Source of the DNA: a virus
Lineage: Duplodnaviria; Heunggongvirae; Uroviricota; Caudoviricetes
Virus record (IMG/VR): IMGVR_UViG_2526164599_000010
Length of the DNA stretch: 37,768 nucleotides
Direction: 5' to 3' (one strand)
The position numbers were made by a program, and so were the translations under genes. A model generated the notes under the pieces. That model ran no database searches, was not told the DNA's origin, and saw only the letters and a program-made list of their open reading frames with translations. Below, one piece after another: positions 874-33,795 of this stretch (positions are counted from its first letter, which is position 1; every line of letters begins with the position of its first letter).

Positions 874-2045
874 ATGCTGAGCAGAGAGGATTTTTACATG
901 ATAAAGCAAATGCGCCAGCAAGGTGCGTATATTGTTGATATTGCCACTCAGGTTGGTTGCTCTGAGCGGACCGTCAGACGGTACCTGAAATACCCGGAAC
1001 CTCCGGCCAGAAAAACACGCCACAAAATGGCCAAACTCAAGCCGTTCATGGACTATATAGATATGCGTCTGGCTGAGAACGTCTGGAACGGCGAGGTCAT
1101 CCTGGCGGAAATCAAAGCGATGGGTTATACCGGTGGCCGTTCCATGTTGCGCTACTACATCCAGCCCAAACGTAAGATGCGGCCATCGAAGAAAACGGTT
1201 CGCTTCGAAACTCAGCCCGGTTACCAGCTACAGCATGACTGGGGAGAAGTTGAGGCTGAGGTTGCCGGGCAACGATGCAGGGTTAACTTCGCGGTTAATA
1301 CGCTGGGGTTCTCACGTCGCTTCCATGTCTTCGCGGCACCAAAGCAGGATGCTGAACATACCTATGAGTCACTGGTCCGCGCCTTTCGCTACTTCGGCGG
1401 TAGCGTGAAAACCGTGCTGGTCGATAACCAGAAAGCCGCAGTTCTGAAAAATAACAATGGGAAGGTGGTGTTCAACTCCGGGTTCCTGCTGCTGGCCGAT
1501 CACTATGGCTTCCTGCCACGGGCCTGCCGTCCACGAAGGGCCAGAACCAAAGGTAAGGTTGAACGGATGGTGAAATACCTCAAGGAAAACTTCTTCGTCC
1601 GGTACCGCCGGTTCGACAGCTTCGCCCATGTTAACCAGCTACTGGAGCAGTGGATGGCTGACGTTGCTGACAGGCGAGAACTTCGCCAGTTCAGGCAGAC
1701 ACCGGAACAGCGCTTCACGCAGGAACAGGAGCATCTGCATCCGCTGCCGGGTACGGACTTCGATACCAGCTATTTCGATATCCGTCATGTCTCCTGGGAT
1801 GGCTATATCGAGGTTGGCGGGAACCGTTACAGCGTACCGGAAAGCCTGTGTGGCCAGCCGGTATCAATACGGATCTCGCTGGATGATGAACTACGGATCT
1901 ACAGTAATGAGCAACAGGTAGCATCGCACCGTCTCTGTTCGGCTGCATCCAGCTGGCAAACCGTGCCGGAGCATCACGCCCCACTCTGGCGGCAGGTCAG
2001 TCAGGTGGAACACAGACCGTTGAGTACGTATGAGGAGCTGTTGTG

Positions 2046-2046
<1 letters not shown>
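874..2046 (+). CDS. istA: IS21-family transposase IstA
   Basis: 390-aa ORF with N-terminal HTH-like region (MLSREDFYMIKQMRQQGAYIVDIATQVGCSERTVRRYL) and integrase-core region; stop overlaps the istB ATG (TGATG at 2044..2048). Confidence 0.9.
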
Positions 2047-2839
<793 letters not shown>

Positions 2840-4315: not shown

Positions 4316-6076
4316 TTAAACGCTCGCTACATTATACCATGTGCCATTTATATACTTTTGAACGGGTCTGTAATAAACACCCGCAATATTATCGGCGGAG
4401 TTGGAACCTGTATCCTGAACATTTATACCAGACAATACATGACCTGAAGGGCACTGGAAGTTCCATGTTTGCCAGTTGTTCACACCATAATATTGCTGTG
4501 AGCCAAGCCGAACATCTTTCACATATCTGGAATCAATGTTACCCCAGTTGCTTGGTTGTATCTGACCGTTTACAGCAAATGTCACCGAGTTATCTGTATT
4601 TCGCTGACTATAGAAATGCCAGCCTGAATCATCACCAAGCTCTGCAACAGTTGGTCTTGACGAATTTCCCCACAAGTTAAATGATGCATTACGGGCAGCG
4701 GTATTTGCACTTGAAAGTGTGAAGAACTTACTTTCCCCAGCCTGAATACCCTTTAATGATCTTGCTGAACCATTTATAAAGCGGAATACATGCACACCAT
4801 TAGCATAAGCATCCAGCACCCCATCACCATTTTGTTTAAACCCGGTATCGTTATCTCCTAAAACTATTGAATTGCCACCCAGGGCATTAGCCGTTCCAAT
4901 CCCCAGATTTCCGCTAAAAATGGCATTAATACCGAATATTGAGTGAGAACAATAAAACCCTCGCCCATTGTTAAAATCCAGAATAGCTTGTGCGTTCGTG
5001 CTTTCTGTCGCGGGATTAGTTGCTCCCCACTTATATGTTGTTTGACCGACAGTATAATCCTGAGTTGGAACAATAACCGTTAGCCCTTCTTCAGCAGAAA
5101 CCCGCACAGGAAAAGCCCTGCCTTCAACGTAAAAAACGCTGCATACATCATCTTCTTTAAGGCTTGTTACAATGGAATGGATTGCGCGCTCATTAGTCTG
5201 ATACGTCGAAAAATAACCTGCCGCATATGAACCACGATCAGTCCAGCCACCAGGCATTACCATTCCATTGAATTCGCAGTTATTCATTGCGTAATCACCA
5301 CTGGCAGATGTGGTCGTTATAATCACTCTGGAAGCCAGCTCGCCAGTGCTGCCTGTGGAACGCCGGAAAATAACTGGATACCACTTTCCACCAACTGCAT
5401 TAGACGGCGCATTAAATGCGTACTGCCGCATTCCTTTTTTCTTATCCACCTCGCCTTTGCTGTAAACATTAATGTTACTCAGGAAGCGATCCTTATCAGG
5501 AATATCCGCGCCGTTCTGGTTTTTTTGTAATGCGCCAGAAGCCTGATTTACCGTTTCCTGTAAACCGACGTTTTGGATAAACAGCGGCTTATTGGGAATA
5601 TCTGCTCCGTTCCGGTCTTTTGCCAGACGGGCATTGGCATTATCCATCGCAATTTTCACCGCTTTTGCGGTGGCTGCCAGCGTTTCACTGGGGCTGTCAG
5701 TGGCACTGGTTAGCTGAACGAGTCCTTTTTTGTTCAGGCTGGCATCATAGATATCCAGATTTTCACGTGCTGTACGCTGTGCTGATGCCCCGGCAGTTTT
5801 AATTTCGCTGAGGTTATTTTTTATCAGCAGCGCGTTATTGCTCATAATGGCTTTAATGGACAGTGCAAGCTGGTTTAATTTTGTTTTATCCGGTTGAATA
5901 CCGGCTTCTTCCAGCGTGTTTAATAACTCCGCCTGCACAATATTAAACCAGTCCATGCCGGGCCATGTGATAACATTATTCCCGTCACCTTCTGAAAACC
6001 AGCGAACGATAGCACTACGCTGGGCGGATACGGGCGGCATGACGGTTACGCCGCTGTCGTTATCAATATAAAACAT
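4316..6076 (-). CDS. S: Tail fibre protein S (constant part Sc fused to variable part Sv across the gix site; the S-U expressing orientation)
   Basis: 586-aa ORF running continuously through gixL (5555..5580); N-terminus [26 protein letters not shown]; Gly/Asn-rich C-terminal region typical of fibre tips. Confidence 0.85.
5499..5710. repeat. Inverted-repeat arm (S side) of the invertible segment; partner of 1..211
   Basis: See the 1..211 entry; this copy keeps the S reading frame intact. Confidence 0.9.
5555..5580. other. gix-like recombination site (gixL-like) inside the S coding sequence
   Basis: TTCCTGTAAACCGACGTTTTGGATAA, exact reverse complement of the site at 130..155. Confidence 0.8.
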
Positions 6077-9846: not shown

Positions 9847-11326
9847 TAATCACCTCAATACTGACACCACCGGGAACAAACAACGGGTTGCTGATACCGT
9901 TCCTGCGGGCCAGCCGTTGCCAGTTCCGGCTGTTTCCTGTGTAACGGTACAGGGCCACCATTGCAGGCATCGTCTCCGGCAGGCGGTGCGTTTCACTGCC
10001 CGCCAGTTGCAGCCCGCGTTTTTCCAGGTCGGCAACAACCAGCAGACGCAGTTGCGTAAGCTGAACACTGTCTGTCGAAAAGCCCTGCTCAGATGCCGTC
10101 AGAATGACGGTATCCAGTGCAGCCCCCAGCATGGCGGCTGTTTTTCCGATATCGGACACACTTTCAAATACCGGGGGCGTGGCTGTACCACTGTCTGAAA
10201 AGGATACCTGTGAAAAACCGCTGTCCGGGGTTATGGCAGTTAACTGTAACTGTCCCTGTGTGACGGTAGCAGATGTGCTGCTGGCCCCGCTGGCTGTGCC
10301 GGTTGTGGTGGACGGAGCATCCAGTACAGGTGCACGGGCGGCATTATCCATCCGGCGACTGAAATCCAGTGCCGCAGTCAGTGCCTGGCTGGCAGCTTCT
10401 GCCCGGTATGTCTGCGCCGCTGCCAGCATGACGTAGTTCAGTGTGGCAATATTTTTTTCTGCAACCGGACTGTTGTACGAGGTTGTGATTGTCCCCTGTC
10501 TGCCTGCGGTGGCGGCATGGCGACGTTCGAATCGCTGCGCCAGACGGTTCCATGTGGAAAATGCTGTCCGGGTATCGCATAACGATGAAACGCCGGATAA
10601 CGCCCCCATCAGCGAGGAGGCCAGCATGGCAGGCTGGTTAATCAGGCTGGTCACAGAGCCTTTCATCGCAGAAAGTGACCCCATCAGGCCGCTGACAGTC
10701 TGGGTGATCCCCAGATTATCCACCGCATCACAGATATCATCGATGACACCGGTTACGGCATCCATTACGGCTGTTGCCGCCGCTGTGCCATCTTTTACGG
10801 TCTGCCAGACAGAGGACAGCGTATCTCCCAGAGAACCGGTTACAGCAACAGCCTGTGCCGGTACGGCTGCACTGGTGTCTGTTTCTGCGTCCGGGGCAGT
10901 ATCCTGCAACGACGGATAAACGGTAACGGTGAACGCGTAATAATTCAGTTCATCCGCTTTAGTGCGGCATTCCCATGAATCCACCATGACGTCCACAGTG
11001 CCGAAATCAGGATGTACCAGCTCACCGCTACCCGGAGCATCAAGAGCATCCATCAGCGCACCCGCTTCATCTCTGGCTGTTTCTGCGTTGCTGTTCAGAA
11101 TGCAGGCGCTGAATGTACGGGAGCGAAGCTTTTTCCCCAGGTCATTGACGCCGCCGGTATCACGTAACGGGTACTCGCGTTTAACCAGACGACGTCCGCC
11201 AGCCTGTTTTTGCTCCTCGATGACGAGAAACGGCACGTTACGGAACGTGCCTTTGCCGGTTGTTTTCTTACCACCGCTGATTTTATCCCGGACAGCATTA
11301 ACGGCATTTAAAGCATCTTCAAACAT
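9839..11326 (-). CDS. N: Tail protein, DNA-circularisation protein (Mu N position)
   Basis: 495-aa ORF directly downstream of the tape-measure gene; conserved Mu order. Confidence 0.7.
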
Positions 11327-24638: not shown

Positions 24639-24912
24639 GGGTGAAAAATCCGGTGTAAAACGTTACCGGCGAATCCAGGAACAACCGATCACCTGACCTG
24701 CCGTCGCCGGGCATCCGCCATTTTCATCTCCTCAGGACAACATCCTTAGTTGCTTTATGGTGGTATGCCATGAATTGCCTGAAGCCATGGCCTGAACAAG
24801 CACATCCCGAATCTGGTGTATCAACCGGACATCAGACAATGTTGCAATCCTGAAGGCTTTTTTATGGGCACTGATTAGCTGTGCTTTGTAATTATTTTTC
24901 ATAACGTAACGC

Positions 24913-25503
24913 CTACGCTTTCCCCAGCAGTACATCACGGATGCGCTGCTCCAGTTCTTCGCTGATGCCATCCTGCCCGCGCAGTTCTTCACTGACAGCG
25001 TTTGCCGCTTCTTCTGCGAACGCCTGGCGGATTTCTTTCTCGCGCCGGTGGCTGGACATTGCCGTGGATTCCAGACGCTGTGCCGCCAGCATGGCATTTT
25101 TCAGCAGGTCAATATCCACGTCAGATTCCGGGTTTTCGATTTGCCGCATCATGGCCTTAAAAAGCTGGCTGCGGGCCATTTCCAGAATCAGCTTTGTGGT
25201 TTCGCCCATTGGCTTGTCGCCAAGTTCTGCGGTCAGTGCTGACGTCATTTCACGCATCTGTCGCAGGTTATGGCCTACCTGCTCGACGTTCGTCGCGTAA
25301 CGGTTCAGACCGGAACGGGAGAGTTTCATCTCATCCGGCAGGCCTGCGTCTTCAATCAGTGCGTTAATTTCTTCCAGAATGCGGGCCTGTGGGATCGCCT
25401 TATCACGCAGCATTTCATGCAGCGTTTTACGTACGTTTTCCGGCAGTAAATCCACTTTTGAAGCCCGGCCCCGTGTTTTCCTGTCCATCACGCCTCCTGT
25501 CAT
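24913..25503 (-). CDS. D: Terminase small subunit-like DNA-packaging protein (Mu D / gp27 position)
   Basis: 196-aa ORF, charged and helical, upstream of the large terminase gene. Confidence 0.6.
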   Translation of the reverse strand: MTGGVMDRKTRGRASKVDLLPENVRKTLHEMLRDKAIPQARILEEINALIEDAGLPDEMKLSRSGLNRYATNVEQVGHNLRQMREMTSALTAELGDKPMGETTKLILEMARSQLFKAMMRQIENPESDVDIDLLKNAMLAAQRLESTAMSSHRREKEIRQAFAEEAANAVSEELRGQDGISEELEQRIRDVLLGKA

Positions 25504-25790
25504 GCACGTGGACGCGGACGCTTGACACCGGCAACGCGGGCGCGGCCTTCCGCCACATCCTGACCTCGGGAGGTCAGCGTTACGACATAAAAGCCGCGCA
25601 GGTTTTCCACGGTGACCAGTTGCTGCTCTGCCAGCCAGTCAATCTGGCCGCGAACCACATCGCGGGAAACGTTGTGTCCGTATGCATCCAGACAGTCCTG
25701 AAGGATGGATTCGTTGGCTTCGTTATTGCAGTCCATCAGGGAACGCAGGATGACCAGACGACGGTCTTCAGTCAGAATATCGTTAATCAT
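25500..25790 (-). CDS. Late protein (Mu gp26 position)
   Basis: 96-aa ORF, ATGA overlap with the downstream gene. Confidence 0.6.
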   Translation of the reverse strand: MINDILTEDRRLVILRSLMDCNNEANESILQDCLDAYGHNVSRDVVRGQIDWLAEQQLVTVENLRGFYVVTLTSRGQDVAEGRARVAGVKRPRPRA

Positions 25791-26104
25791 GAATTACTCC
25801 GGTTTACTGCGTTTTCAAGCAGTAGCTCCAGTTGATGGGAAAATGACTGCACCCGCTGGGACAGCACCCGGATATCGCCGGACAGCTCTGCAATACGCAG
25901 GCGCATTTCGTGTACATCTTCTGTGCCAGGGATGCTGGCGTAGCGGGTTTCCATTTCGGTCATCCGGTTTTCAAGACGCTCCACACGCTCGGTGCTGGCA
26001 AAACTACGACGCATCGCCCAGACGGCCCCACCGGCCACAACAGGCAACAGGTAAGGCCATAACGCTAAAACTGAAATCAAATCCATTATTCTGCTCCACG
26101 GCAC
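25787..26104 (-). CDS. Membrane protein in the lysis region (Mu gp25 position; candidate releasin)
   Basis: 105-aa ORF with an N-terminal hydrophobic segment (LISVLALWPYLLPVVAGGAVWA) and a charged coiled-coil tail. Confidence 0.6.
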   Translation of the reverse strand: MPWSRIMDLISVLALWPYLLPVVAGGAVWAMRRSFASTERVERLENRMTEMETRYASIPGTEDVHEMRLRIAELSGDIRVLSQRVQSFSHQLELLLENAVNRSNS

Positions 26105-26280
26105 CAGTGGCAGTAGTTCGCCATCGGCTGCTGTCTCAGCACATCAGGCCGCAGCTCACGACCGCAACCGGCACACAATACAGGCGGGTCATACGCCGCC
26201 GGGCGGGGAATATCACGGGTATCCCCCTGCCAGAGTTCAGCGAGCAGCAGCGCCACCGCCCGGTTCTGGTCTTCGTTCAT
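26086..26280 (-). CDS. Small Cys-containing protein (Mu gp24 position)
   Basis: 64-aa ORF with CxxC...CxxC motifs. Confidence 0.5.
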   Translation of the reverse strand: MNEDQNRAVALLLAELWQGDTRDIPRPAAYDPPVLCAGCGRELRPDVLRQQPMANYCHWCRGAE

Positions 26281-26578
26281 AAATTTCTTTCCTTCGGATC
26301 TCCTGTTCCCGGACTGATGCCTTGTCGCGGTTGCACTGCCCGAGCGCCATCAACAGGTCAGCATTCCAGAGAAGGGATGCTCCCCACGTCAGGGGCTGTG
26401 GCATGGGCGGAACGGGCGTTGCTTCTGTCAGTTCTGTATCAGTTTCGGGCAGGATCACCACCGATGGCACGGGTGCGTTTTTCGAGTTCCCGCAACCTGT
26501 CAGCAGCAACGGCAGGCACAGGACGAGTGCTGCAATTGTCACCAGTAATGGCGGTTGTAATTTTTTCTTTTGCATCAT
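26237..26578 (-). CDS. Outer-membrane spanin lipoprotein (o-spanin), overlapping the i-spanin gene
   Basis: Starts MMQKKKLQPPLLVTIAALVLCLPLLLTGC: signal peptide plus lipobox LLTGC; out of frame and overlapping the 3' part of the preceding TMD-protein gene, the classic overlapped spanin arrangement. Confidence 0.7.
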   Translation of the reverse strand: MMQKKKLQPPLLVTIAALVLCLPLLLTGCGNSKNAPVPSVVILPETDTELTEATPVPPMPQPLTWGASLLWNADLLMALGQCNRDKASVREQEIRRKEIYERRPEPGGGAAAR

Positions 26579-26825
26579 GATGTTCTGTCTCATCTGCCAG
26601 CCGTGCGGCACGATTTGCGGCACGGATAGCGGAAAATACCTGCATCGTCTGTTCCTGACCGTGTAACAACCATTCAGCAGTGTGGCGGGCCTGTTGCTCC
26701 GTCTGTAATTCACGGCGCAGCGTCTGGTTATCGTGGCGGGTGCTGTCCAGCCTGTGCCACAACACCCCAGACAGAACGGCGGTAAACACGGCTGCCAGCA
26801 GTAAACTTTTACTGGCGAAGGTCAT
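26439..26825 (-). CDS. Inner-membrane spanin (i-spanin)
   Basis: 128-aa ORF with an N-terminal TMD (SLLLAAVFTAVLSGVLW) and a charged helical periplasmic domain; immediately after the endolysin gene. Confidence 0.7.
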   Translation of the reverse strand: MTFASKSLLLAAVFTAVLSGVLWHRLDSTRHDNQTLRRELQTEQQARHTAEWLLHGQEQTMQVFSAIRAANRAARLADETEHHDAKEKITTAITGDNCSTRPVPAVAADRLRELEKRTRAIGGDPARN

Positions 26826-27327
26826 CCGCCCCCCTGATATTCCAGATTGCCATTTCCACTTCGCGACGGTTCATCAGTCCTTTCCATTTATGGCCTGCGG
26901 CAAACACCCAGCGGGCCATCTGGTCACGCGCTCCGGCGTAATCACCGGCATTGAGTTTTTTCAGCAGCGTTGATTTACTGAATGCGGTAACACCGGTGTT
27001 GAAAATAAATGTTGCCAGCGCCGTTTTCTGATATGGCGTCAGCGGCACCCTGACAAGACGATCGATTGCCGCATAAACCGGTTTTAAATCACTGTCGAGG
27101 AGAGCCATACACTCCGCATGGCTGTAACGGCGCATTTCGATATCCGGCCCGGTATGTCCCACACAGACCGTAAGCACACCGGCAATATCGCGGTAAGGCA
27201 TATAAGCGATATTTTCCAGATGGATCAGAGACTGACGGGTCATTTCCTGATAACCACCCACACCACCACCGGCAATCGTTGCCGCCAGCAGTGCGGCTTT
27301 CAGTTTTTTTGGTATCCCCGCCATCAT
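26809..27327 (-). CDS. lys: Endolysin with N-terminal signal-anchor-release (SAR) type segment (Mu lys)
   Basis: 172-aa ORF; N-terminal Gly/Ala-rich weakly hydrophobic segment (LKAALLAATIAGGGVGG) followed by a lysozyme-like domain; first late gene after C. Confidence 0.85.
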   Translation of the reverse strand: MMAGIPKKLKAALLAATIAGGGVGGYQEMTRQSLIHLENIAYMPYRDIAGVLTVCVGHTGPDIEMRRYSHAECMALLDSDLKPVYAAIDRLVRVPLTPYQKTALATFIFNTGVTAFSKSTLLKKLNAGDYAGARDQMARWVFAAGHKWKGLMNRREVEMAIWNIRGADDLRQ

Positions 27328-27398
27328 GCTTCCCTGAAAAAATGCTCTGATGGCAGTCTAAAAAATCAGGTGACAGGTGCGGGATTATGGTGACAGGA
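27328..27398 (-). promoter_or_regulatory. Candidate C-activated late promoter Plys region
   Basis: Non-coding interval between the C terminator and the lys start; contains AGGTGCGGGA (27375..27384), identical to the 10-mer upstream of gene I. Confidence 0.55.
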
Positions 27399-27423
27399 AA
27401 TAACCGGCAGGATGCCGGTTATT
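27399..27423 (-). terminator. Intrinsic terminator of the middle transcript, overlapping the C stop codon
   Basis: Minus strand reads TAA-CCGGCA-TCC-TGCCGG-TTATTTCCT; perfect palindrome AATAACCGGCAGGATGCCGGTTATT. Confidence 0.7.
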
Positions 27424-27841
27424 TTGGGCTTTCAGGTGAGAACAGATCAGGCTGATGACGCCGTGTATGCAGCTTTCTCTGGCGGGCAATAATCTGGTAG
27501 ATCTGCGGCTGGGACAGGCGGTACTGGCGACGCAGTTCTTCCATGTTACGACCATTGAACTGGCAGTAAAGCAAATCGTCGCGTAACGCGGTCAGGATAG
27601 TATCGCCACAGGGGATATAAAACTGCCGCCCGCCCAGAAAACAGGACAGGGCAACGGCCTGTTTACGGGCAAGCTCACGGGGATTGCTGACGTTCTGGCG
27701 TTTCAGTTCGTTTTCCAGAACATCAATCAGATCAACCACCGAACGGGGCCAGCGTGATTCCAGTTCCGGGGCCGGGATGTTATCAATATGTCCGATTAAC
27801 TGGCGAATTGCCGGATCGTGTTCAAATAAATCATGCTGCAT
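27419..27841 (-). CDS. C: Late-gene transcription activator C
   Basis: 140-aa ORF, last gene of the ~1.2-kb middle operon; C-terminal HTH-like region; paralogous in layout to Mor (both ..FNGRN..EL..Y..). Confidence 0.85.
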   Translation of the reverse strand: MQHDLFEHDPAIRQLIGHIDNIPAPELESRWPRSVVDLIDVLENELKRQNVSNPRELARKQAVALSCFLGGRQFYIPCGDTILTALRDDLLYCQFNGRNMEELRRQYRLSQPQIYQIIARQRKLHTRRHQPDLFSPESPK

Positions 27842-27854
27842 ATTTTCCCCCGGT

Positions 27855-27974
27855 TAACAGACAGAAAGATACACCACGGCACTGATGGTTATCAGAACCA
27901 CAAGGGCAATCACTTTTATCGCATTAATCAGCGTGGACGGCCCGAAACATTCATCACTGAATTTTCTGTACATG
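27855..27974 (-). CDS. Small hydrophobic peptide (39 aa) in the middle operon
   Basis: ATG..TAA ORF MYRKFSDECFGPSTLINAIKVIALVVLITISAVVYLSVC, too short for the ORF track; fills the gap between the upstream membrane-protein gene and C. Confidence 0.4.
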
Positions 27975-27982
27975 GTGCCCCT

Positions 27983-28345
27983 TTACCCGAACAGACGAGC
28001 GCGAAAACGAAAGGAGAGCCAGAACGTCAGCAATCCGGCCAGCGCCCAGATGACATGCTCAGGACCCGTTTTCAGTTGAGACGTTGCCATCACGGCTAAT
28101 CCCAGCCCGGACAGACTCCCCAGCCAGGTCAGCGGCCAGACGAACCGGGCAAAATGTTCAGGCACCCGGCAGCTCATTATCAGCGCATCCAGACAATCAC
28201 CGGCAACACATAAAGCAACACTGAAAACCGAGGCACAGCAAAACATCAGCGCGCGCCAGCCACAAAACAGACTTATCCACAATAACAGCGCCAGTAACAC
28301 CACCGATAAAAAATCAGGCCACTGACGAGCAGAACGCTCAGACAT
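27983..28345 (-). CDS. Integral membrane protein of the middle operon; start chosen at the internal ATG 28345, which has a GGGAGA Shine-Dalgarno
   Basis: Multiple hydrophobic segments; 8-nt overlap with the upstream ORF. Confidence 0.6.
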   Translation of the reverse strand: MSERSARQWPDFLSVVLLALLLWISLFCGWRALMFCCASVFSVALCVAGDCLDALIMSCRVPEHFARFVWPLTWLGSLSGLGLAVMATSQLKTGPEHVIWALAGLLTFWLSFRFRARLFG

Positions 28346-30148: not shown

Positions 30149-30468
30149 TTTGCGGCCCTCAGAATAAATTCAGGATAAAATTTCAGACTCATTTGCCGTA
30201 ACACATCCAGTGCAGCAACGGCTGCTGATTTATCGTTGCCATCAGCAATAGCGCGGAGATTTTCAATAATCCAGTGAGGACTCAGTGACTCAGCAATAAT
30301 GCCAAACCGGTACGCCATGACCTCATCAATAGCTTTTTCATGAGACGTCTCATATACAAAATTCACAAATTCATGCACTTCTTTTTTCGGCAAACCACCG
30401 GCAATCAGCAGGGCGGCAAGCTCTTCTGATTTTGAAAATACACCATTATTCATATCACTCACCTTCAC
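30145..30468 (-). CDS. Early semi-essential region protein, function unknown
   Basis: 107-aa ORF. Confidence 0.6.
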   Translation of the reverse strand: MKVSDMNNGVFSKSEELAALLIAGGLPKKEVHEFVNFVYETSHEKAIDEVMAYRFGIIAESLSPHWIIENLRAIADGNDKSAAVAALDVLRQMSLKFYPEFILRAAK

Positions 30469-33046: not shown

Positions 33047-33066
33047 TGTCAGCGCTCCTTTGCGAA

Positions 33067-33336
33067 TTAATGTTTAACCGCATTCACCGGACGTGGTACT
33101 AAATCACATTCAGCTTCCATACCCGCTTTCTTCATAGTGGTCAGCATCTCATCTTTGGCCTTTTTAATAATTTCAGGAGCCATAGTCAGGACGATATTTG
33201 CCAGTAAATCATGAGGCCCGGTATTTTCCGTTGGCGAGATATCTGCAAGACATGCTTTTGCATCCAGAACTTCTCTGCGCCCATTGCAACCGTCACTACT
33301 TTCCAGCCATGTAAACTCAAAGATAACTTTTGCCAT
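33067..33336 (-). CDS. Early region protein, function unknown
   Basis: 89-aa ORF. Confidence 0.55.
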   Translation of the reverse strand: MAKVIFEFTWLESSDGCNGRREVLDAKACLADISPTENTGPHDLLANIVLTMAPEIIKKAKDEMLTTMKKAGMEAECDLVPRPVNAVKH

Positions 33337-33347
33337 TTTGCTTCTCC

Positions 33348-33560
33348 TTATTGATTAACGGGCGTTGCATTTGTGATTTTGTTAAGTTCACAAAGCACAT
33401 TTTCTGCGTGATGATGGTTGCCGACATGAACGACCAGCCTGTGACCACCAACAAATTCAAAAGCAACACCGCCCTCAACAGTCGTTTCCATTACATTGAC
33501 ATTATCAAGGTTGATTAACTTACTAATTCCCAGATTATCGTGAATATTTATCACCATCAT
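33348..33560 (-). CDS. Early region protein, function unknown
   Basis: 70-aa ORF. Confidence 0.5.
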   Translation of the reverse strand: MMVINIHDNLGISKLINLDNVNVMETTVEGGVAFEFVGGHRLVVHVGNHHHAENVLCELNKITNATPVNQ

Positions 33561-33567
33561 TTAAATG

Positions 33568-33795
33568 CTATCTCCAGATTATCTGACAACCATTAAGACG
33601 GGCCGTCCATACAGAACGGGCCACCCCGGACTTATGCTCCATAATTCTGACCGCGTTTTTTACCAGTTCCACCGGTGGGTAAGTGATTTCAAGAATCGGA
33701 CGCGCCACGCCGAGATATGATTCATTTACATGGCTCCCGCGCGCCTGTAACCAGTTCTGCGCATCCGTTGCCATTTTTATATTTCGGGCCATCAT
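33568..33795 (-). CDS. First small gene after B; position and size fit Mu kil (host-killing protein), assignment by position only
   Basis: 75-aa ORF 15 nt downstream of the B stop. Confidence 0.6.

Follow-up and report, generated by a model that had tools for sequence, protein, structure and literature searches.

The window, by which we mean the whole 37,768-nucleotide stretch of DNA analysed here, carries a gene cluster that is almost certainly the late-operon lysis cassette of a transposable phage of the Mu/D108 type, working as published for Mu. Gene identities, gene order, overlaps and sequence features were observed in the window itself; the functional steps come from the work of others on proteins that are 99-100% identical to those encoded here. 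All elements of the cluster lie on the minus strand (Table 1).

Relationship of the window to Mu and D108

Judged by its sequence, the whole window is a Mu/D108-type transposable phage of the species Muvirus mu, in reverse-strand orientation. Over most of its length, from the repressor gene c (Mu_1, ahead of the transposase genes) to the tail-fibre gene S, with Mor and C in between, it is collinear with Mu. Between positions 25400 and 27900, DNA identity amounted to 98.8% with Mu and 99.2% with D108 (GQ357916.1), and across the 2.5 kb of the lysis region 31 nucleotides differed from the former and 21 from the latter, which is the nearest sequenced phage in this region. At the protein level, gp24 and gp25 were 100% identical to their Mu counterparts, while gp22, gp23 and gp23.1 (99.1-99.4%) carried one substitution each, V15A, G21V and I46T, respectively, and all three are also found in D108, a functional phage. 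The cassette gp22-gp23-gp23.1-gp24-gp25 matches the Mu record AF083977.1 in the order of its genes, in how they overlap and in their reading frames. Mu and the window further share the lysines K6, K7 and K9 and the E37-D46-T52 triad of gp22, the lipobox Cys29 of gp23.1 and the DUF2730 match of gp25, as well as, upstream of lys, the activator gene C, a terminator and the promoter Plys. Because the DNA shares 98.8% identity with phage Mu, and the encoded proteins 99.1-100% with Mu gp22-gp25, we regard the lysis genes as real and not as chance open reading frames (ORFs).

The positions of the terminator and of Plys were obtained by coordinate transfer, the window position being 37804 minus the Mu coordinate (AF083977.1). 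The terminator hairpin, CCGGCAtcctGCCGG, is followed by a run of T, and from 27335 to 27421 terminator and promoter together displayed only two base differences from Mu, at 27373 and 27344. The base found at 27344, within Plys, is present in neither Mu nor D108.

Table 1. Position and supporting evidence of features in and upstream of the lysis cassette.
Feature	Coordinates	Strand	Evidence
gp25, releasin (DUF2730), 99 aa	25787..26086	minus	PF10805 E=2.5e-13; 100% identical to Mu gp25; 'releasin' in AF083977.1
gp24, 64 aa, function unknown	26086..26280	minus	100% identical to Mu gp24; PHROG_3260 (unknown function)
gp23.1, o-spanin lipoprotein, 113 aa	26237..26578	minus	PF23793 LysC/Rz1-like E=4.5e-14; 99.1% identical to Mu_55
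gp23, i-spanin	26439..26825	minus	PHROG_214 Rz-like spanin E=1e-34; 99.2% identical to Mu gp23
gp22 (lys), SAR endolysin, 171 aa	26809..27324	minus	PF00959 E=1e-37; 99.4% identical to Mu gp22
Plys, C-dependent late promoter	~27335-27401	minus	transferred from Mu feature 10403-10469
Terminator after C	~27398-27421	minus	transferred from Mu feature 10383-10406
Gene C (gp21), late-gene activator switching on lys operon promoter	27419..27841	minus	Pfam Mor family E=9.4e-34; 99.3% identical to Mu C; AF083977.1
gp20, 39 aa, one TMD, middle operon	27854..27973	minus	hydropathy; 100% identical to Mu
gp19, 120 aa, multiple TMDs (four annotated), middle operon	27983..28345	minus	hydropathy; 99.2% identical to Mu

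The endolysin and the search for a holin

The lys ORF extends from 26809 to 27327, and translation is annotated to begin at its second ATG (27324), which gives a protein of 171 residues in which the lysines fall at K6 and K7. The catalytic domain belongs to the Pfam family Phage_lysozyme, a PHROG endolysin family was also matched, and the active-site triad E37-X8-D46-X5-T52 is intact. Residues 6-25, KKLKAALLAATIAGGGVGGY, begin with K6, K7 and K9 and contain Gly, Ala or Thr at 11 of the 20 positions. This N-terminal segment is weakly hydrophobic, with a maximum Kyte-Doolittle value (15 residues) of 1.55 versus 2.5-2.9 in the transmembrane domains (TMDs) of the spanins. When gp22 was aligned to the PDB chains 3hde, which we take to be the phage 21 SAR endolysin, and 4zpu (RrrD), the alignment started at residue 5 and included the SAR segment (E ~1e-37). 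The SAR endolysins R21 of phage 21 and RrrD of DLP12 are of the same muramidase family, with a Gly/Ala-rich N-terminal SAR segment that aligns with that of gp22; however, their release is timed by the pinholin S21-68, whereas the Mu type has no holin and requires a cytoplasmically oriented DUF2730 protein. The proposal of the earlier note, made before any database search, that lys encodes a SAR endolysin with a Gly/Ala-rich N-terminal segment is borne out by these features and by the near identity to Mu gp22, which has been shown experimentally to be a SAR endolysin (PMC9239132). The V15A change makes the SAR helix slightly less hydrophobic than that of Mu, the same residue being present in D108, and could in principle alter the kinetics of release.

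By sequence alone, the small residues that follow the hydrophobic stretch (the run IAGGGVGG) would be compatible with a signal peptidase I site, and gp22 might then be a soluble secreted enzyme whose Sec signal peptide is of the usual kind and is cleaved off, the role of gp25 being unrelated. We give this reading practically no credence. Mu gp22 alone is not lytic, yet it is released by the phage 21 pinholin (S21-68) or by chloroform (Chamblee et al. 2022, PMC9239132). SAR endolysins are defined operationally by just this behaviour, and since gp22 alone is non-lytic, constitutive secretion of an active enzyme is incompatible with its behaviour. Moreover, its N-terminal segment aligns with its counterpart in 3hde and 4zpu, lysozyme chains that were crystallised at full length with this segment present.

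A hydropathy scan was carried out on all ORFs of at least 30 amino acids, on both strands and over the whole window. On the coding strand, the membrane protein candidates were gp19, gp20, gp23, gp23.1 and gp25, plus one dubious ORF of 53 amino acids with a TTG start (33317..33478), which is situated in the early region, in overlap with better ORFs. All other ORFs with hydrophobic segments were off-frame and within known genes. Some DNA of the window is missing from Mu, namely 24639-24922, 30151-30444, 33061-33569 and an IS21-family element inside the G segment, and when it was scanned for a hidden lysis gene, no convincing late-expressed small membrane protein was found. A 284-bp insert in the gap between gp27 and gp28 holds a hydrophilic 56-aa ORF, and early-region ORFs of 107, 89 and 70 amino acids had no Pfam match.

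Apart from the spanins, the small membrane protein nearest to lys is gp20, encoded 529 nt upstream, with gp19 just beyond. The earlier note had assigned that place to the ORF now identified as gp25, which lies farther away, at 722 nt. Both gp19 and gp20 are separated from lys by gene C, the terminator and Plys. Being small membrane proteins near lys, they might form a holin/antiholin pair, a pairing that Samanta et al. proposed from predicted topology (as cited in PMC9239132), and the system would then be a conventional holin-endolysin-spanin one whose holin has moved to the middle operon. This arrangement is extremely improbable, as the two are middle and not late genes, they caused no lethality upon depolarisation with DNP whether expressed one at a time, as a pair or along with every other candidate, and DNP delays Mu lysis instead of triggering it (PMC9239132). 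Furthermore, genetic studies of an earlier date had shown that lysis does not need them (as given in PMC9239132), and the proteins of the window are 99-100% identical to those tested in Mu. No canonical holin, whether of class I, II or III or a pinholin, was therefore recognised in the window: the hydropathy candidates were only gp19, gp20 and gp25, and in Mu none of the three is DNP-triggerable or lethal or behaves as a holin (PMC9239132). With window proteins 99-100% identical to these, the absence of a canonical holin, already suspected from the sequence, holds.

Releasin, gp24 and spanins

The fourth gene after lys, which starts 722 nt past the stop codon of lys, encodes gp25, whose match to PF10805 scored 50.4 bits (cutoff 24.9). 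Its annotated start is the ATG at 26086, which has GGAG 7 nt upstream and overlaps the gp24 stop (TAATG). The alternative GTG at 26104, from which a product of 105 amino acids had initially been read, lacks a Shine-Dalgarno sequence, and the length has to be corrected to 99. The protein has a single TMD (residues 3-22), preceded by about four residues and followed by R26-R27 (RR motif), which by the positive-inside rule suggests an N-out/C-in topology. In an AlphaFold single-sequence model (mean pLDDT 79), helices span residues 10-49 and 56-97, and the heptad a/d positions of the second helix are 83% LIVMF; the TMD followed by a coiled-coil tail that the earlier note had described is in agreement with this picture. 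A Foldseek comparison of the model with the PDB gave nothing at E <= 0.001 and no clue to mechanism, the matches being only generic helical hairpins (de novo designed bundles, WXG100, ESCRT-III-like).

In Mu, gp25 is needed for the release of gp22 from the membrane: a 25::cam lysogen did not lyse for about 3 h, while gp22 and gp25 together brought about lysis at about 50 min (PMC9239132). As gp25 of the window is 100% identical to this releasin, the role that had been suggested for it by analogy with Mu is supported. Neither a cleavable endolysin signal nor an unimpaired lysis without gp25, the two outcomes that had been named as arguing against the scheme, was seen in the Mu experiments with the near-identical proteins (PMC9239132).

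Being small and late-expressed, with one TMD and a place within the lysis cassette, and being required for lysis, gp25 could also be an unusual holin or pinholin, depolarising the membrane and in this way releasing the SAR endolysin; like a pinholin, it does help unrelated SAR endolysins to be released (PMC9239132). Nevertheless, we consider this reading very unlikely. Induction of gp25 left growth unaffected, triggering with DNP did not make it lethal, and just four of its residues are periplasmic, while 73 belong to a soluble domain in the cytoplasm (PMC9239132). In addition, either of the substitutions K6A and K7A in gp22 abolishes the dependence on gp25 (PMC9239132), and this bypass suggests that gp25 acts on the cytoplasmic N-terminus of gp22 rather than on the proton-motive force. 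As to how gp25 might work as a releasin, it has been proposed in the literature that charge at the N-terminus of gp22 is neutralised or removed, that a transient channel forms, or that a partner from the host takes part. A search of the literature on releasin and DUF2730 since 2022 returned citing papers only, with no new mechanistic work.

Between the spanin genes and gp25 lies gp24, which contains two CxxC pairs. Its gene shares 44 nt with that of the o-spanin, and in TAATG the stop of gp24 and the start of gp25 overlap. Against Pfam, gp24 gave nothing above threshold, and it is absent from the text of Chamblee et al. 2022 (PMC9239132). There is a slim chance that gp24 is an unrecognised fifth player of the cassette, modulating the releasin or the timing of lysis, or that the D108-type V15A variant of the SAR segment shifts the dependence on gp25.

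The i-spanin gp23 shows an N-terminal TMD (residues 4-22, by hydropathy), and the o-spanin gp23.1 a lipobox, LLTGC, with Cys29, proline accounting for 10 of the 85 residues of the mature part. Lambda Rz/Rz1 is alike in pairing an inner-membrane subunit that has an N-terminal TMD with a Pro-rich outer-membrane lipoprotein read in the +1 frame. The lambda Rz1 gene is, however, wholly embedded within Rz, whereas here the o-spanin gene, in the +1 frame relative to gp23, has 140 nt within the i-spanin gene and runs 202 nt beyond its stop. Therefore, the architecture is overlapped and not embedded. The earlier note was right about an i-spanin followed by an out-of-frame o-spanin with LLTGC, and its description of the pair as overlapped stands, but its wording of an embedded gene does not. 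In an E. coli prophage, the start of the o-spanin called by PGAP lies 12 codons downstream. The two Mu proteins have been shown to be spanins; 23.1 amber mutants display the spherical-cell spanin phenotype, and a 23.1 amber mutant was complemented by lambda RzRz1 (PMC9239132).

Lysis pathway and annotation of relatives

Following the published Mu scheme, lysis would begin with the activator C switching on the late promoter Plys. The endolysin gp22 would be exported by Sec and remain inactive, tethered to the inner membrane through its weakly hydrophobic N-terminal SAR helix, which the cytoplasmic K6 and K7 would hold in place. With no holin at work, the SAR helix would leave the bilayer only in the presence of gp25, predicted to cross the membrane once (N-out/C-in) and to form an acidic helical hairpin in the cytoplasm. 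Once released, gp22 would refold and degrade the peptidoglycan, and the gp23/gp23.1 spanin complex would then disrupt the outer membrane.

Lysis that lacks a holin and depends on a releasin is already known, having been shown for Mu in 2022 (Chamblee et al., mBio 13:e00813-22, PMC9239132), and in the current Mu GenBank record AF083977.1 the homologous genes already bear the names SAR endolysin, i-spanin, o-spanin and releasin. As the genes are the same as those of Mu almost base for base, the window is of little value as a discovery. What it brings to light is a gap in annotation. The deposited D108 record (GQ357916.1) still lists genes 23-25 as 'conserved hypothetical' and leaves the o-spanin unannotated, and in D108, SfMu, the Yersinia vB_YpM phages and PGAP-annotated E. 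coli prophages the cassette proteins are still 'hypothetical' or 'DUF2730 family protein', with the o-spanin left out or shortened in some of the deposited relatives.

Identity of the cassette

When the minus strand of 25400-27900 was compared with phage records by megablast, full-length matches were obtained with Escherichia phage D108 (99.2% identity) and Escherichia phage Mu (98.8%), and further close matches with SfMu, PhiR68_1 and several Yersinia vB_YpM phages. By blastn, the reverse-complemented window was collinear with the Mu GenBank record AF083977.1 from position 339 (window 37768) to 31991 (window 5542), at 96.7-98.9% identity, the minus strand being the conventional left-to-right phage orientation. 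Because of these matches and this collinearity, the window is assigned, on its sequence, to the species Muvirus mu, as a transposable phage or prophage of Mu type.

All open reading frames (ORFs) listed in the earlier note are present and pair one-to-one with annotated Mu genes. A base-by-base comparison showed that the three amino acid changes with respect to Mu are all common to the window and D108, a functional phage. The lysis cassette is already known and was in effect rediscovered: it is that of Mu, in a phage of Mu/D108 type, and the current GenBank Mu record names a 'SAR endolysin', an 'i-spanin', an 'o-spanin' and a 'releasin'.

Genes of the lysis cassette (minus strand), with gp26 and gp27, compared with Mu
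Gene	Position	Length	Identity to Mu	Change
gp22 (lys)	annotated start, second ATG at 27324	171 aa	99.4%	V15A
gp23, i-spanin	26439..26825		99.2%	G21V
gp23.1, o-spanin	26237..26578		99.1%	I46T
gp24	26086..26280		100%	none
gp25	25787..26086		100%	none
gp26			100%	none
gp27			100%	none

DNA that departs from Mu

Between the gp27 (small terminase) stop and the gp28 (large terminase) start, the window has 284 bp (24639-24922, minus strand), compared with only 17 bp in Mu and D108. This insert contains a hydrophilic 56-aa ORF (24732..24902; MKNNYKAQLISAHKK...) with no Pfam match and only a weak one to PHROG_220 'minor head protein' (E=4.9e-4). It also occurs in about 10 of 5426 complete E. coli genomes, at ~98-99.7% identity, and is left unannotated by PGAP. 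Since other Mu-like prophages hold different hypothetical genes at this site, the gp27/gp28 junction is suggested to be a moron insertion hot-spot.

The invertible G (tail-fibre) segment carries an IS21-family insertion sequence (874..2839, plus strand) coding for IstA (390 aa; rve and Mu-transposase C-terminal domains) and IstB (225 aa; PF01695, E=8.8e-81). With this element inside, the segment measures ~5.4 kb versus 3 kb in Mu, and one tail-fibre variant is probably disrupted. The early region departs from Mu twice, by a ~293-bp insert with a 107-aa ORF lacking a match in the Mu genome (30145..30468, minus strand) and by ~510 bp in which genes 6 and 7 of Mu give way to two unrelated ORFs of 70 and 89 aa (33061-33569); none of these three ORFs had a Pfam match.

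At the left end, 1-221 repeats 5489-5710, at the S-gene/G boundary, in inverted orientation (1-94 is 100% complementary to 5617-5710, and 90-221 is 93% complementary to 5489-5620). The sequence passes through the right G inverted repeat and folds back into the constant part of the tail-fibre gene S, and therefore gin, com and mom are missing; the right phage end is likewise absent. This fold-back does not look biological: it resembles what assembly from G(+) and G(-) forms mixed in one population would give, or the end of a contig.

Spanins and gp24

gp23 carries an N-terminal transmembrane domain (TMD) and, at E=1e-34, matches the PHROG family of Rz-like spanins, while gp23.1 shows the lipobox LLTGC with Cys29, a Pro-rich mature part and a match to Pfam LysC/Rz1-like (E=4.5e-14). 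The earlier note had proposed an i-spanin with an embedded, out-of-frame o-spanin lipoprotein. All of this stands except the word 'embedded': the gp23.1 gene, in the +1 frame, shares the last 140 nt of gp23 and runs 202 nt beyond its end, so the architecture is 'overlapped'. In Mu, 23 and 23.1 amber mutants show the spherical-cell spanin phenotype, and the 23.1 defect is complemented by lambda RzRz1 (Chamblee et al. 2022, PMC9239132). Relatives differ in how the o-spanin is annotated: the GenBank record of D108 omits it, and in one E. coli prophage it is named 'lysC' by PGAP, which sets the start 12 codons downstream.

The gp23.1 gene overlaps by 44 nt with gp24, which lies between the o-spanin and releasin genes, codes for 64 aa with two CxxC pairs and goes unmentioned in the releasin paper (PMC9239132).

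Endolysin, holin candidates and releasin

gp22 matches Phage_lysozyme (E=1e-37) and has the triad E37-X8-D46-X5-T52. Its residues 6-25 (KKLKAALLAATIAGGGVGGY) include 11 Gly/Ala/Thr, with a peak Kyte-Doolittle value over 15 residues of only 1.55. At E ~1e-37 it aligned from residue 5, SAR-like segment included, with two lysozyme chains of solved structure, 3hde (SAR endolysin of phage 21) and 4zpu (RrrD). The three N-terminal lysines are all kept in the window. The D108-type change V15A falls within the SAR helix and may set its behaviour apart from that in Mu. Mu gp22 alone does not cause lysis and is freed by the phage 21 pinholin S21-68 or by chloroform, the behaviour by which a SAR endolysin is operationally defined; positive charges at positions 6 and 7 make gp22 dependent on gp25 (PMC9239132). 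Thus, the SAR-type endolysin with a Gly/Ala-rich N-terminus described earlier is borne out, and a cleavable signal peptide at this N-terminus is contradicted by these experiments on a protein 99-100% identical to that of the window. In the Plys region, ~20 nt ahead of the start codon of lys, position 27344 is C in the window versus A in both Mu and D108.

The gp25 ORF had been taken for the small membrane protein nearest to lys. However, gp20, a 39-aa protein with one TMD, is closer: on the upstream side 529 nt separate its end from lys, with gp19 (multiple TMDs) just beyond, whereas on the downstream side 722 nt separate the lys stop from the start of gp25. Both gp19 and gp20 belong to the middle operon; gene C, a terminator and Plys, the late promoter that depends on C, stand between them and lys. 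Published experiments on Mu proteins that are 99-100% identical to those of the window contradict a reading of gp19/gp20 as a holin-antiholin pair, or of gp25 as an atypical pinholin: after DNP depolarisation gp19, gp20 and gp25 were not lethal singly, as gp19 plus gp20, or all combined, and DNP delayed rather than triggered Mu lysis, so Mu has no holin (PMC9239132). A hydropathy scan of all window ORFs of at least 30 aa revealed no further credible coding-strand membrane protein. Together, these data uphold the claimed lack of a canonical holin. A holin hidden in DNA absent from Mu was also considered and rejected, those segments encoding hydrophilic small ORFs or an insertion sequence.

gp25 matches DUF2730 (E=2.5e-13), with a TMD at residues 3-22, then R26-R27, and a predicted cytoplasmic domain of 73 residues, 12 of them acidic. 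A single-sequence AlphaFold model (mean pLDDT 79) predicts helices 10-49 and 56-97, the second with heptads in regular 3-4 spacing, so the earlier note's description of a coiled-coil tail after one TMD is fair. The proposed length of 105 aa comes from reading the ORF at its longest, from a GTG; the start that is supported, ATG 26086, gives 99 aa, with GGAG 7 nt upstream and a TAATG shared with the gp24 stop. The protein is still 'DUF2730 family protein' or 'hypothetical' in RefSeq, SfMu and Yersinia phages. We found no mechanistic work on the releasin in the literature after Chamblee et al. 2022, later papers merely citing the concept. Those authors proposed that gp25 removes or neutralises N-terminal charge, forms a transient channel or acts with a host partner (PMC9239132). 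A Mu 25::cam lysogen continues to grow for ~3 h, compared with wild type lysis at ~40 min, plasmid-borne gp22 and gp25 together cause lysis at ~50 min, and gp25 also promotes the release of unrelated SAR endolysins (PMC9239132). The observation in the earlier note is confirmed, and its interpretation, a Mu-type releasin role for this small single-TMD protein, is supported by its complete identity to Mu gp25 and by the 25::cam data.
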